Shown here: positions 17,002 to 50,860 of the stretch, piece by piece
Layout of the letters: each line of letters starts with the position of its first letter
Position numbering within the stretch: position 1 is the first letter of the stretch
Source: Escherichia coli
GTDB lineage: Bacteria; Pseudomonadota; Gammaproteobacteria; Enterobacterales; Enterobacteriaceae
Assembly (NCBI RefSeq): GCF_003018255.1
Contig: NZ_CP027440.1
DNA: 64,000 bases
Reading direction: 5' to 3' (one strand)
Position numbers and translations under genes: made by a program
Notes under the pieces: generated by a model
Told to the model about the DNA's origin: nothing
The model's database searches: none
The model's input: the letters and a program-made list of their open reading frames with translations, nothing else

Positions 17002-18405
17002 TTAAACAATGCGAAACGCATCGACTAATACACAGCGACGCAGACGGACAAACGTCCGCGCGCTGGTTACCCCTTCACCGGTTGGCGTGGTGATGGTCAT
17101 AGTGGTCCAGCCTTCCCCGCCCAGCCCCAGCCCGGCAATGCACGGTCCGTTCTTAACGAAAATGCTGGTATCAATGGCATTCGCCATCTGGTTCATGTTC
17201 TCGATATTGCGCGAGTGCATTGCCGCCGTGTGGTGGCAACCGCCTTCCAGTTTCACCGCCAGCGCAATGGCATCCGCCACGTTGGCGACGCGCACGACGG
17301 GCAGCACCGGCATCATCAGTTCAGTCACAGCAAACGGATGTTCTGCGGTGGTTTCTACAAACAGCAGTCGCGTTTGTTCCGGAACTTTAAGGCCGATTGC
17401 CGCCGCGATTTTCGCCGCATCGCGACCAACCCAGTCACGGCTGACGGTGCCTTTTCCGCGCTCGTCGATATTTTTCAGCAACACCGATTGCAGTTGCTGC
17501 GCCTGCTCTGCGGTCAGTTTCACCGCATGCTGGCCTTCCATCAGACGCATCAGTTCATCGGCTACGCTATCAACAACAATCAGTACCTTTTCGTCGGCAC
17601 AAATGATGTTGTTATCGAAAGAAGCACCTTTGACGATGGACTGAGCTGCACGGGCGAGGTCGGCGGTTTCATCCACCACTACCGGCGGGTTACCGGCACC
17701 TGCCGCAATCAGGCGTTTATTGGTGTGTTTGCGCGCCGCTTCCACTACCGCTTCGCCGCCGGTCACCACCAGCAGGCCGATACCCGGAAACTTGAACAAG
17801 CGTTGCGCGGTTTCGATATCCGGATTTGCTACGGTAACCAGTAAGTTTTCCGGCCCGCCTGCGGCAACAATCGCCTGGTTGAGCAGCGTAATCGCCCGCT
17901 GGGAGACTTTTTTCGCCGCCGGATGCGGGGCAAAAATGACGCTGTTGCCCGCGGCAATCAGGCTGATGGCGTTATTAATGACGGTTGCCGCCGGGTTAGT
18001 GGAAGGCGTCACCGAAGCCACTACGCCCCAGGGCGCGTTTTCAATTAAAGTCAGGCCGTTGTCGCCAGTCAGCACCTGTGGAGAGAGGCACTCAACGCCT
18101 GGTGTGCCGCGCGCCTGAGCGACGTTTTTGGCAAATTTATCTTCAACGCGCCCCATGCCGGTTTCACTGACGGCAAGTTCCGCTAAATCTCTGGCGTGTT
18201 TTTCGCCTGCTTCACGAATGGCAGCAATGGCTAACTGGCGCATTGCCACGCTTTTTAACCCTTGCTGGGCGACTTTGGCTGCCGCAACGGCGTCATCCAG
18301 GGACGCGAAAACGCCCATCTCATGAACGGCGGCGGGCGGCGTGTCACTGCTTTGCATTTTCAGCAGTACCGCTTTCACCACCTGTTCAATATCCTGTTGA
18401 TTCAT
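17002..18405 (-). CDS. eutE: CoA-acylating acetaldehyde dehydrogenase EutE
   Basis: 467-aa ORF; aldehyde dehydrogenase family; synteny. Confidence 0.93.
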   Translation of the reverse strand: MNQQDIEQVVKAVLLKMQSSDTPPAAVHEMGVFASLDDAVAAAKVAQQGLKSVAMRQLAIAAIREAGEKHARDLAELAVSETGMGRVEDKFAKNVAQARGTPGVECLSPQVLTGDNGLTLIENAPWGVVASVTPSTNPAATVINNAISLIAAGNSVIFAPHPAAKKVSQRAITLLNQAIVAAGGPENLLVTVANPDIETAQRLFKFPGIGLLVVTGGEAVVEAARKHTNKRLIAAGAGNPPVVVDETADLARAAQSIVKGASFDNNIICADEKVLIVVDSVADELMRLMEGQHAVKLTAEQAQQLQSVLLKNIDERGKGTVSRDWVGRDAAKIAAAIGLKVPEQTRLLFVETTAEHPFAVTELMMPVLPVVRVANVADAIALAVKLEGGCHHTAAMHSRNIENMNQMANAIDTSIFVKNGPCIAGLGLGGEGWTTMTITTPTGEGVTSARTFVRLRRCVLVDAFRIV

Positions 18406-26289: not shown

Positions 26290-28293
26290 ATGTCCCGAAA
26301 AGACCTTGCCAATGCGATTCGCGCACTCAGTATGGATGCGGTACAAAAAGCCAATTCTGGTCATCCCGGCGCGCCGATGGGCATGGCTGATATTGCCGAA
26401 GTGCTGTGGAACGATTTTCTTAAACATAATCCTACCGACCCAACCTGGTATGATCGCGACCGCTTTATTCTTTCCAACGGTCACGCGTCGATGCTGCTCT
26501 ACAGTTTGCTGCATCTGACCGGTTACGACCTGCCACTGGAAGAACTGAAGAACTTCCGTCAGTTGCATTCGAAAACCCCTGGTCACCCGGAAATCGGCTA
26601 TACGCCAGGTGTTGAAACCACCACCGGTCCTCTTGGACAAGGTTTGGCGAACGCCGTCGGGCTGGCGATAGCAGAGCGTACGCTGGCGGCGCAGTTTAAT
26701 CAGCCGGATCATGAAATTGTCGATCACTTCACCTATGTGTTTATGGGCGACGGCTGCCTGATGGAAGGTATCTCTCACGAAGTCTGTTCGCTGGCGGGCA
26801 CGCTGGGGCTGGGCAAGCTGATTGGTTTTTACGATCACAACGGTATTTCCATCGACGGTGAAACCGAAGGCTGGTTTACCGACGATACGGCAAAACGTTT
26901 TGAAGCCTATCACTGGCATGTGATCCACGAGATCGACGGTCACGATCCGCAGGCGGTGAAGGAAGCGATCCTTGAAGCGCAAAGCGTGAAAGATAAGCCG
27001 TCGCTGATTATCTGCCGTACGGTGATTGGCTTTGGATCGCCGAATAAAGCAGGTAAAGAAGAGGCGCACGGCGCACCGCTGGGTGAAGAAGAAGTGGCAT
27101 TGGCACGGCAAAAACTGGGCTGGCACCATCCGCCATTTGAGATCCCTAAAGAGATTTATCACGCCTGGGATGCCCGCGAAAAAGGCGAAAAAGCGCAGCA
27201 GAGCTGGAATGAGAAGTATGCAGCCTACAAAAAGGCCCATCCGCAACTGGCAGAAGAGTTTACCCGTCGGATGAGCGGTGGTTTACCGAAGGACTGGGAG
27301 AAAACGACTCAGAAATATATCAATGAATTACAGGCAAATCCGGCGAAAATCGCTACCCGTAAGGCTTCGCAAAATACGCTTAACGCTTACGGGCCAATGC
27401 TTCCTGAATTGCTCGGCGGTTCGGCGGATCTGGCTCCCAGCAACCTCACCATCTGGAAAGGTTCTGTGTCGCTGAAGGAGGATCCGGCGGGCAACTACAT
27501 TCACTACGGGGTGCGGGAATTTGGCATGACCGCTATCGCCAATGGCATTGCGCACCACGGCGGCTTCGTGCCGTATACCGCGACGTTCCTGATGTTTGTT
27601 GAATACGCTCGTAACGCCGCGCGGATGGCGGCACTGATGAAAGCGCGGCAGATTATGGTTTATACCCACGACTCAATTGGCTTAGGGGAAGATGGTCCGA
27701 CCCACCAGGCCGTTGAGCAACTGGCCAGTCTGCGCTTAACGCCAAATTTCAGCACCTGGCGACCGTGCGATCAGGTGGAAGCGGCGGTTGGCTGGAAGCT
27801 GGCGGTTGAGCGCCACAACGGACCGACGGCACTGATCCTCTCCAGGCAGAATCTGGCCCAGGTGGAACGTACGCCGGATCAGGTTAAAGAGATTGCTCGT
27901 GGCGGTTATGTACTGAAAGACAGCGGCGGTAAGCCAGATATTATTTTGATTGCCACCGGTTCAGAGATGGAAATCACCCTGCAAGCGGCAGAGAAATTAG
28001 CAGGAGAAGGTCGCAATGTACGCGTAGTTTCGCTGCCCTCGACCGATATTTTCGACGCCCAGGATGAGGAATATCGGGAGTCGGTGTTGCCTTCTAACGT
28101 TGCGGCTCGCGTGGCGGTGGAAGCAGGCATCGCCGATTACTGGTACAAATATGTTGGTCTGAAAGGGGCAATTGTCGGGATGACCGGCTATGGGGAATCT
28201 GCTCCGGCAGATAAGCTGTTCCCGTTCTTTGGCTTTACCGCCGAGAATATTGTGGCAAAAGCGCATAAGGTGCTGGGAGTGAAAGGTGCCTGA
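26290..28293 (+). CDS. tktB: transketolase 2
   Basis: ORF 26227..28293; start taken at internal Met ([27 protein letters not shown], 667 aa). Confidence 0.93.
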
Positions 28294-28309
28294 TGGTGAT
28301 CGCCGGATG

Positions 28310-28378
28310 CTATATGTTCCCCTCACCCTAACCCTCTCCCCAGAGGGGCGAGGGGACGGTCCGTGCGCTTTTTAGGGG
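28310..28378. repeat. GC-rich boxC-like intergenic repeat (cccctcaccctaaccctctcccc...gaggggcgagggga)
   Basis: Imperfect G/C-tract inverted symmetry between convergent tktB and ypfG; family assignment from memory. Confidence 0.4.
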
Positions 28379-28395
28379 CGCATCTGGGATTTTGT

Positions 28396-29439
28396 TTAAC
28401 GGGTGATCCACAACGTGGGCCAGGCGTCTGGCCCATGCCAGTTATCGCAGGTGGGTTCTGCGGCGTAACGCACCAGGCGAAAAAGCTGACCGTCAAAGCG
28501 CCAGCGCGCCTGAATGCCACAATCGCTTAATCCGCGCCCTTTCGCTAAGGTCACCAGTTCACGCGATTTTTCATCGAATGTTGCGTTCATCAGTTCCAGT
28601 TCATTCGTCTCCTGACCGCTGTTGAACGGCAAACGTAACCGAACCGGGCGCGAGGCCAGTGGCTTTTTACGCGACACAATCCATGCCAAATCAATGGTGT
28701 TATAGGCCCCTGCCTCACAGCTAATCATCATCAGCGCTTTATCATCGGTCAGCGCAGTGACATTCACCTCTCGACGCAATGGATCAAGCGAGCAGCGCAG
28801 ACCATTCATCCGCCAGTTTCCATAATCCAGCAAATCGTTGCGTTCTTCGAGTGAGAGTGGCGTCGGCGTTGGGTTAACCACCGCGACCTCTTTCAGCGCA
28901 GGCGCGGGCGGTACGCTGAGCGGCGGTTCATCCCCTTTCTTTATCCACGCGGTTTCACTGCCAACGCGCTTTTGCTGAGCATCTATAAACAACAACGCCG
29001 CTTTTAAGCCACTCAGAGAAATAGTCTGATTGCCGTCGCGTAAGGTGATCGCCCTCCCTTCCTGAATCATCTGCAAAAACGCGGTGATGGTTGCCGTATC
29101 ATCGGTTACTAATAACCATGGTGAAATCCGCCACTTGTCACCACTTAACGCCAACGGCTCACCATCTAACAGCAGCCGTGGCGCTATCTCCCCTTCAGAC
29201 GCATCCGGCGACTTCAACCCGCCGCGCTCAATACGTAAAACGGCATCGGTATGCGCCCCGGCGCTGCGGCTCAGGGTCATCACCAGTCCGTTATGATCGC
29301 CCGTATTACGCGCCACGCAGAAGTTTTGGTTATTACAGGTGACCTGCCAGTCGGAAAACGCCCGTTGCGCTGGTGCCGCCCACACCAAAGACGTCGGCAA
29401 CAAAGCGAAAAAAAAGAGAAGGAAAATGCGATAGCGCAT
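28396..29439 (-). CDS. ypfG: DUF1176 periplasmic protein YpfG
   Basis: 347-aa ORF with N-terminal signal peptide. Confidence 0.85.
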   Translation of the reverse strand: MRYRIFLLFFFALLPTSLVWAAPAQRAFSDWQVTCNNQNFCVARNTGDHNGLVMTLSRSAGAHTDAVLRIERGGLKSPDASEGEIAPRLLLDGEPLALSGDKWRISPWLLVTDDTATITAFLQMIQEGRAITLRDGNQTISLSGLKAALLFIDAQQKRVGSETAWIKKGDEPPLSVPPAPALKEVAVVNPTPTPLSLEERNDLLDYGNWRMNGLRCSLDPLRREVNVTALTDDKALMMISCEAGAYNTIDLAWIVSRKKPLASRPVRLRLPFNSGQETNELELMNATFDEKSRELVTLAKGRGLSDCGIQARWRFDGQLFRLVRYAAEPTCDNWHGPDAWPTLWITR

Positions 29440-39632: not shown

Positions 39633-39662
39633 GCCGGATAAGGCGTTAACGCCGCATCCGGC
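39633..39662. repeat. REP element (gccggataaggcgttaacgccgcatccggc)
   Basis: Canonical REP palindrome between convergent ypfN and ypfH. Confidence 0.8.
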
Positions 39663-50827: not shown

Positions 50828-50860
50828 GCCGGATGCGACGCTTGCCGCGTCTTATCCGGC
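50828..50860. repeat. REP element (gccggatgcgacgcttgccgcgtcttatccggc)
   Basis: Canonical REP palindrome between convergent yfgD and hda. Confidence 0.8.

Follow-up and report, generated by a model that had tools for sequence, protein, structure and literature searches.

The window analyzed here is a stretch of 64,000 nucleotides of Escherichia coli chromosome that covers the eut–maeB–talA–tktB–ypfG–nudK–aegA–narQ–acrD region; strain JNE23-011 is 99.9% identical to it across 2.1 kb. Genes were annotated by mapping a 99.9%-identical genome (NZ_AP045067.1) onto the window and by use of the list of open reading frames (Table 1). The stop codon of tktB (TGA) occupies positions 28291–28293 and that of ypfG (TAA, read as TTA on the plus strand) occupies positions 28396–28398, and therefore positions 28294–28395 are the exact 102-nt spacer between the two convergent genes. 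Three mechanically called open reading frames overlap the spacer (27997–28326, 28323–28520, and 28363–28530); these lie mostly within tktB or ypfG and were rejected as genes.

Table 1. Features of the tktB–ypfG spacer and its borders, in window coordinates.
Feature	Coordinates	Strand	Remarks
tktB (annotated 'tkt', transketolase), CDS	26290–28293	+	ORF list and NZ_AP045067.1 annotation
Left junction copy AAGGTGCCTGATGGTGATC	28283–28301	+	Putative ancestral form AAGGTGCTTAACGGGTGATC; supplies the present tktB stop codon
REP-like half-site GCCGGATGC	28302–28310	+	5′ arm of outer inverted repeat; alignment and folds
Full BoxC unit, ~59 nt	28315–28373	−	19-nt 5′ flank AAAAAGCGCACGGACCGTC, core, and 3′ GAACA
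BoxC/PIT/TMECO core, 'type A mm'	28319–28354	−	Exact consensus match; four identical MG1655 copies
Canonical G-quadruplex motif GGGGAGAGGGTTAGGGTGAGGGG	28319–28341	−	G4 regular expression; contains the HPG1 sequence
Core block GGGTGAGGG	28320–28328	−	Plus G at 28319
Core loop TTA	28329–28331	−	
Core block GGGAGAGGG	28332–28340	−	
Core loop CTCTG	28341–28345	−	
Core block CCCTCGCCC	28346–28354	−	
Allele-specific segment AGGGGCGCATCTGGG	28374–28388	+	Outside the BoxC unit
Right junction copy ATTTTGTTTAACGGGTGATC	28389–28408	+	Contains the ypfG stop codon
ypfG (DUF1176 domain-containing protein), CDS	28396–29439	−	Convergent with tktB

Judged by consensus match and by identity to known copies, the GC-rich stretch in this spacer is one ordinary copy of BoxC, a known dispersed intergenic repeat of Enterobacteria. 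The minus strand from 28354 to 28319 reads CCCTCGCCCCTCTGGGGAGAGGGTTAGGGTGAGGGG. The published TMECO consensus is 5′-CCCTCNCCC-N3-6-GGGNGAGGG-N3-GGGNGAGGG-3′ (Holder et al., 2015, NAR 43:10126; PMC4666352), and the corresponding regular expression has a single match in the window, at 28320–28354 on the minus strand with no mismatch, followed by a G at 28319. The resulting 36-nt core is identical at 36/36 positions to MG1655 copies 9 (fabI–ycjD), 16 (zntA–tusA), 19 (pstB–pstA), and 22 (yjdP–phnP), as confirmed at the four loci fetched from NC_000913.3; all four are of subtype 'A mm' among the 23 MG1655 copies in Table 1 of PMC4666352. Two overlapping sub-patterns of 23–24 nt each occur once in the window when up to three mismatches are allowed, and the same search of 100 dinucleotide-preserving shuffles of the window returned no match. 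The original prediction had assigned the element to the boxC family, and the comparison with the published consensus bears this out.

BoxC, PIT, TMECO, and HPG1 are one element under several published names. TMECO is the element named earlier BoxC (Bergler, 1992) and PIT (Hoyne, 2000) (PMC4666352). The founding BoxC copy lies downstream of fabI (envM) (Bergler et al., 1992, J Gen Microbiol 138:2093, as cited in PMC4666352 and PMC2267715), and MG1655 copy 9, identical to the window core, is this same fabI/envM copy; the element is also covered by Bachellier et al. (1999, Res Microbiol 150:627, as cited in PMC4666352 and PMC2267715). Compared with BoxC as described in these two papers, the window copy is alike in core, flanks, and intergenic habit, with no sequence difference. 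In the terms used for PIT (Hoyne et al., 2000, J Mol Biol 302:797) and TMECO, it belongs to subtype A (its second loop is TTA) and has one mismatched triplet; this combination is the most frequent subtype in K-12 (13 of 23 copies; PMC4666352). It is a lone copy, whereas five K-12 TMECO loci are inverted pairs of type A and type B. It also contains the HPG1 sequence GGGAGAGGGTTAGGGTGAGGG exactly, and shares with HPG1 the conserved C-rich 5′ flank and the position between convergent genes (Kaplan et al., 2016, NAR 44:9083; PMC5100583). The element is thus already known: the label 'BoxC (PIT/TMECO/HPG1) repeat, type A' suffices for the spacer, no new element is needed, and the gain for annotation is small.

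The boundaries of the unit were set from column conservation among 12 copies (11 from K-12 and that of the window) anchored on the core. The upstream flank is conserved over ~19 nt (aaaaaGCGCACnnaCnGTC; …GCGCACnnaCnGTC) and the downstream flank over ~5 nt (GAACA), and the window copy has both. The resulting length agrees with the published 50–56 nt (PMC2267715). The repeat had been said to fill the spacer; it does lie within the spacer, but the full unit accounts for 59 of the 102 nt (58%), so the claim was overstated, and the 39-nt string originally quoted corresponds to 28319–28357. Outside the unit, the spacer comprises a REP-like half-site, a 15-mer specific to this allele, and short flanks that are shared. 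The half-site is common to the REP alleles of this spacer described below. Within the 15-mer, GCATCTGG forms the 3′ arm of an outer inverted repeat with 28303–28310. This 15-mer is found only in genomes with the BoxC allele and in Escherichia sp. E1V33, and may be a decayed 3′ arm of a REP.

The element is multi-copy in E. coli, as the original prediction would require. With a 51-nt query, complete E. coli genomes contain a median of 19 places (range, 2–34), amounting to 96,040 places on chromosomes and 70 on plasmids; with a 901-nt query spanning the locus, the median is 17 (range, 3–28). The window itself contains one copy, which is intergenic. The two closest genomes (NZ_AP045067.1 and NZ_AP045072.1) have only five places each with the 901-nt query, compared with the median of 17, and therefore the source lineage probably has few BoxC copies, yet keeps the tktB–ypfG copy.

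Beyond E. coli chromosomes, matches were found in 524 of 72,556 records of the plasmid collection, although several of the top Escherichia records are of chromosome size (4.8–4.9 Mb). Plasmid p2 (819 kb) of Azospirillum brasilense Sp7 has 22 places, with a core 97.5% identical over 40 nt, and in the Alphaproteobacteria (Azospirillum p2 and Sinorhizobium meliloti pSymB) the core including GGGTTAGGGTGAGGGG is nearly unchanged. These plasmid-replicon matches fit the 3,610 TMECO copies reported in 262 proteobacterial genomes (Holder et al., 2015). The IncP/IncU plasmid pWW14A-KPC2 of Klebsiella quasipneumoniae carries a strict-consensus BoxC/TMECO at 1501–1548, between the ISApu2 and ISApu1 transposase genes, and other plasmids of Klebsiella, Aeromonas, and Citrobacter have matches of equal span and identity. 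The TMECO motif has been described as having no association with plasmids or transposons (PMC4666352). BoxC is essentially absent from the phage collection, with three odd records only. Campylobacter phages A18a and A11a (MG065686.1 and MG065691.1) have three places each, 93% identical over 57 nt to the BoxC unit, and contamination or mis-assembly may account for BoxC in these records.

Comparison of strains indicates that BoxC is optional at tktB–ypfG. The tktB-side junction of the BoxC allele (61-nt query, coverage of at least 80%) is present in 818 of 5,426 complete E. coli genomes (15%), and the remaining ~85% of strains, among them K-12, O157, and O104, have in its place REP elements, which come in three lengths. 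Because K-12 has REP there, tktB–ypfG is missing from the K-12 list: this insertion site is absent among the K-12 BoxC copies, and none of the 23 published copies lies near 2.58 Mb (PMC4666352 Table 1). Consistently, the text and supplements of Holder et al. (2015) do not mention tktB or ypfG.

An alignment of the tktB–ypfG spacer from seven genomes including the window (alignment A1) contains at least four length alleles among E. coli. K-12-like, O157, and ET979 genomes have a REP plus a partial REP duplication, with a spacer of 94 or 109 nt, the 109-nt allele being the 94-nt allele plus an extra GCCGGATGCTGATT repeat. 14EC020 and p4A have a single REP and a 76-nt spacer, and the window and TL20 have the BoxC allele of 102 nt. 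Because the REP alleles vary too, the variability of the site does not come from BoxC alone. The flanks …TGATGGTGAT(C/T)GCCGGATGCT and ATTTTGTTTAACGGG are common to all seven. Neither a clean empty site nor a target-site duplication of BoxC is seen among the compared alleles, in which REP and BoxC are exchanged as a replacement of 46 nt by 72 nt. REP or BoxC at one site on near-identical flanks constitutes a natural experiment, and an isogenic comparison of this allele pair could test for effects on transcript ends, mRNA stability, and local recombination.

The BoxC allele at this site is probably old. Escherichia sp. E1V33 has the orthologous allele in the same position and orientation, including the 15-mer outside the BoxC unit, even though the coding sequence on its flanks matches that of the window at only 93% identity (the window and K-12-like E. 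coli are 97–98% identical); the allele is therefore probably older than the split between the species or else an ancient polymorphism that both share. Between E. coli and E1V33, the core differs at 1 of 37 positions, a loop base, and the unit at 2–3 of 59 positions, whereas the rest of the spacer differs at at least 6 of ~43 positions plus a 3-nt indel, by our count. The slower change of the core suggests constraint or homogenization by gene conversion, although the numbers are small. The predicted outer stem of E1V33 has an A–T pair where E. coli has C–G, which amounts to one compensatory change. Another genome, 'Escherichia coli' SCPM-O-B-8794, is only 89–91% identical to the window at the 3′ ends of tktB and ypfG, and its TktB ends with …GVKSA*; it probably belongs to a different Escherichia species.

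As to the origin of the spacer, among 80 loci of Enterobacteriaceae encoding YpfG, at which tkt ends were placed by tblastn anchoring, 65 have a convergent tkt within reach, and in 15 of these 65 the stop codons of tkt and ypfG overlap without any spacer, tkt ending with …KVLNG* inside the ypfG stop region. The overlapping junction 20-mer AAGGTGCTTAACGGGTGATC, which is present in Citrobacter, Kosakonia, and Superficieibacter, has two copies in the window, each with four edits (fuzzy match), whereas none of 500 shuffles contained two such matches. The two junction copies bracket an 87-nt repeat-bearing segment (28302–28388). The left copy contains the last six codons of tktB and thereby gives TktB an extra C-terminus (GVKGA*), where Citrobacter and Kosakonia end with KVLNG*. 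The right copy is invariant in all E. coli alleles of alignment A1, and its four substitutions are all to T, producing a T-rich tract directly after the outer stem.

These features can be ordered as follows. The ancestral state would have been overlapping tkt and ypfG stop codons, as in many Enterobacteriaceae. In Escherichia, a repeat-bearing insertion (28302–28388) would then have split the genes and duplicated the ~20-bp overlap, so that both frames kept their ends. Today the interior of the insertion is found in alternative forms, the REP type in ~85% of E. coli and the BoxC type in ~15% and in E1V33. Because GCCGGATGC starts the insert in every allele, the REP-type insert is more likely to be the original, with BoxC replacing its interior, although the evidence does not fix this order. 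The duplicated junction indicates that repeat insertion can pull apart overlapping convergent genes with neither reading frame damaged.

The spacers of relatives contain diverse structured elements. REPs are found between tkt and ypfG in Citrobacter, Salmonella, and E. whittamii, and plain terminator hairpins in Kosakonia. In Leclercia and Silvania, two-block BoxC-like hairpins lie beside a canonical bidirectional terminator hairpin. In Phytobacter diazotrophicus, the same spacer contains a full BoxC that is oriented the opposite way and represents an independent arrival.

BoxC is absent from this site in 85% of strains and many relatives have no spacer at all; therefore, the best-supported reading is a dispensable passenger that does nothing particular for tktB or ypfG. 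Very probably, the GC-rich stretch is a known BoxC copy that rides as such a passenger, prone to form structures, within an older insertion that split the overlapping tkt and ypfG. Certain observations do not sit easily with this reading. The core has changed at only 1 of 37 positions relative to E1V33, whereas a pure passenger needs neither constraint nor gene conversion. The near-identical core in Azospirillum and Sinorhizobium is not explained by neutral drift. In addition, BoxC lies inside a well-supported predicted outer stem followed by a T-rich tract, and this composite might terminate transcription. What remains of interest at the locus is the REP/BoxC allelic pair, the duplicated junction by which an overlap of two genes was resolved, and the fact that the core is conserved between bacterial classes.

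A role of the insert as a terminator is rather unlikely. In this reading, the whole insert would be the intrinsic terminator of the talA–tktB transcript, and BoxC would be only cargo in a large loop. In the predicted outer stem, 28298–28311 pairs with 28380–28392, and the stem runs straight into the T-rich tract ATTTTGTTT. In the minimum-free-energy fold, GAUC.GCCGGAUGC is paired with GCAUCUGG.GAUU, and UUGUUUA comes immediately afterwards. The expected number of closing pairs is 9.4, compared with 1.75 in shuffles, and none of 300 shuffles reaches the observed value. A closing stem, of other sequence, is also predicted beside the same conserved tail in the REP alleles and in E1V33; however, the stem is not significant in the K-12-like, 14EC020, and E1V33 alleles (p = 0.10–0.20). 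The outer stem beyond shuffle expectation and the all-T substitutions of the right junction copy thus suggest that the insert may be a non-canonical tktB terminator, and a canonical bidirectional terminator occupies the tkt–ypfG spacer in other genera. Against this, a scan of 27900–28800 for canonical terminators (GC-rich stem of at least 5 bp, loop of 3–8 nt, and U-tract at most 2 nt off the stem) returned none on either strand, the enclosed loop of ~68 nt is far from canonical, and the ypfG side has no U-tract. PIT elements alone reportedly lack terminator activity (Hoyne and Maher, 2002, J Mol Biol 318:373, as summarized in PMC4666352); promoter activity and an effect on replication in vivo were likewise not seen for PIT elements (PMC4666352).

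Scans for other functional signals were likewise unproductive. The promoter scan returned no relevant site, with one promoter-like match inside tktB at shuffle expectation. The Rfam scan of 27800–28900 with permissive E-value filters gave chance-level matches only; the best of these, to the eukaryotic antizyme frameshift element (22.3 bits versus a gathering score of 40; E = 0.05), is taken as chance.

In another reading, which is unlikely, BoxC is an active or recently active non-autonomous element; an enzyme with affinity for hairpins or for the BoxC sequence would insert it into repeat-rich convergent spacers or REP hairpins. Several of the features described above would be expected of such an element: it is multi-copy with conserved flanks, its copy number varies widely among strains with both queries (2–34 and 3–28), its core is almost unchanged in Alphaproteobacteria, the window copy is flanked by the two arms of a REP-like stem, the same spacer of Phytobacter contains an independent full copy of opposite orientation, and the copy on the one KPC plasmid examined lies between ISApu2 and ISApu1. 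However, terminal inverted repeats are absent from the unit, it lacks a target-site duplication of its own, and no transposase is associated with it (PMC4666352). In addition, the tktB–ypfG copy has been in place since the split of E. coli and E1V33, and the change from REP to BoxC is a replacement rather than a clean insertion.

A related idea draws on the REP system, in which RAYT transposases act on REPs. By analogy, BoxC might still be propagated or homogenized by an enzyme that recognizes its sequence or structure and targets hairpin-rich convergent spacers. The near-invariant core, the independent landings in Escherichia and Phytobacter, and the REP-like stem position give rise to this idea, which we consider quite improbable; BoxC is not known to have a RAYT-like mobilizing enzyme.

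The passenger reading does include a propensity for unusual structure. The alternating C-tracts and G-tracts originally noticed are present as three blocks on the plus strand (two C-blocks and one G-block). The dyad character noticed with them is real but imperfect, and does not amount to a simple palindrome: the arms (28318–28328 and 28346–28356) are 11 nt long and 91% complementary. Fold energies of the spacer and core are not exceptional relative to dinucleotide shuffles (z = −0.7 to −2.0), as expected for a sequence of C-tracts and G-tracts, and therefore thermodynamic stability alone is no evidence of function. When single-stranded, the one C-block and two G-blocks of the element can fold into either of two hairpins, into an intrastrand purine triplex, or into a G-quadruplex. 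Likely effects would be a stable stem-loop in transcripts entering the spacer and a greater propensity for local rearrangement. Sequence variability has been reported to be higher around TMECO loci than at control intergenic sites (PMC4666352). An intrastrand purine-motif triplex has been demonstrated in vitro by CD and NMR with oligonucleotides of types A and B, whether or not they contained the mismatch (PMC4666352); the window copy has the same 36-nt sequence as the K-12 type A mm copies.

It is highly improbable that BoxC acts here as a regulatory switch between G-quadruplex, hairpin, and duplex, either on the DNA or on the ypfG 3′-UTR RNA, which carries the G-rich strand. The regular expression for canonical G-quadruplexes (G3+ N1-7 G3+ N1-7 G3+ N1-7 G3+) has only three matches in the 64-kb window, and the minus-strand BoxC motif is one of them; the other two are at 17115–17133 and 7470–7486, both on the minus strand. 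The motif contains the HPG1 sequence, for which ion-dependent transitions between G-quadruplex and hairpin were seen by CD in vitro, and six HPG1 members lie between convergent genes (PMC5100583). However, counts of imino protons by NMR favor the triplex over the G-quadruplex when the full element is considered, and DMS footprinting in vivo gave no support for a stable triplex or other non-B structure (PMC4666352). Moreover, 85% of E. coli lack the element at tktB–ypfG, and the genes flanking TMECO copies show no functional theme.

That the stretch is a REP/BIME variant or a chance GC-rich palindrome can be dismissed: the REP-like GCCGGATGC does lie 5 nt from the BoxC unit, and most strains have a REP at this site, but the unit has no GCCGGATG...CATCCGGC palindrome, the shuffles contained no match, and the stretch matches the consensus of another published family exactly and is identical to MG1655 copies. 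REP/BIME (PU) and BoxC are both short, structured, multi-copy intergenic repeats that gather in 3′ spacers; they differ in that BoxC is made of three C/G blocks and REP is a palindrome. The REP palindrome GCC(G/T)GATG…(C/T)ATC(C/A)GGC is absent from 28315–28373, the nearby sequence containing only the lone half-site at 28302–28310, so the stretch is indeed unlike the REP elements elsewhere in the window, as the original prediction had it. Canonical REP palindromes of the window lie at 14943–14975 (minus strand), 39633–39662 (minus strand), and 50828–50860 (plus strand), and those at 14943–14975 and 50828–50860 are identical 33-mers on opposite strands.
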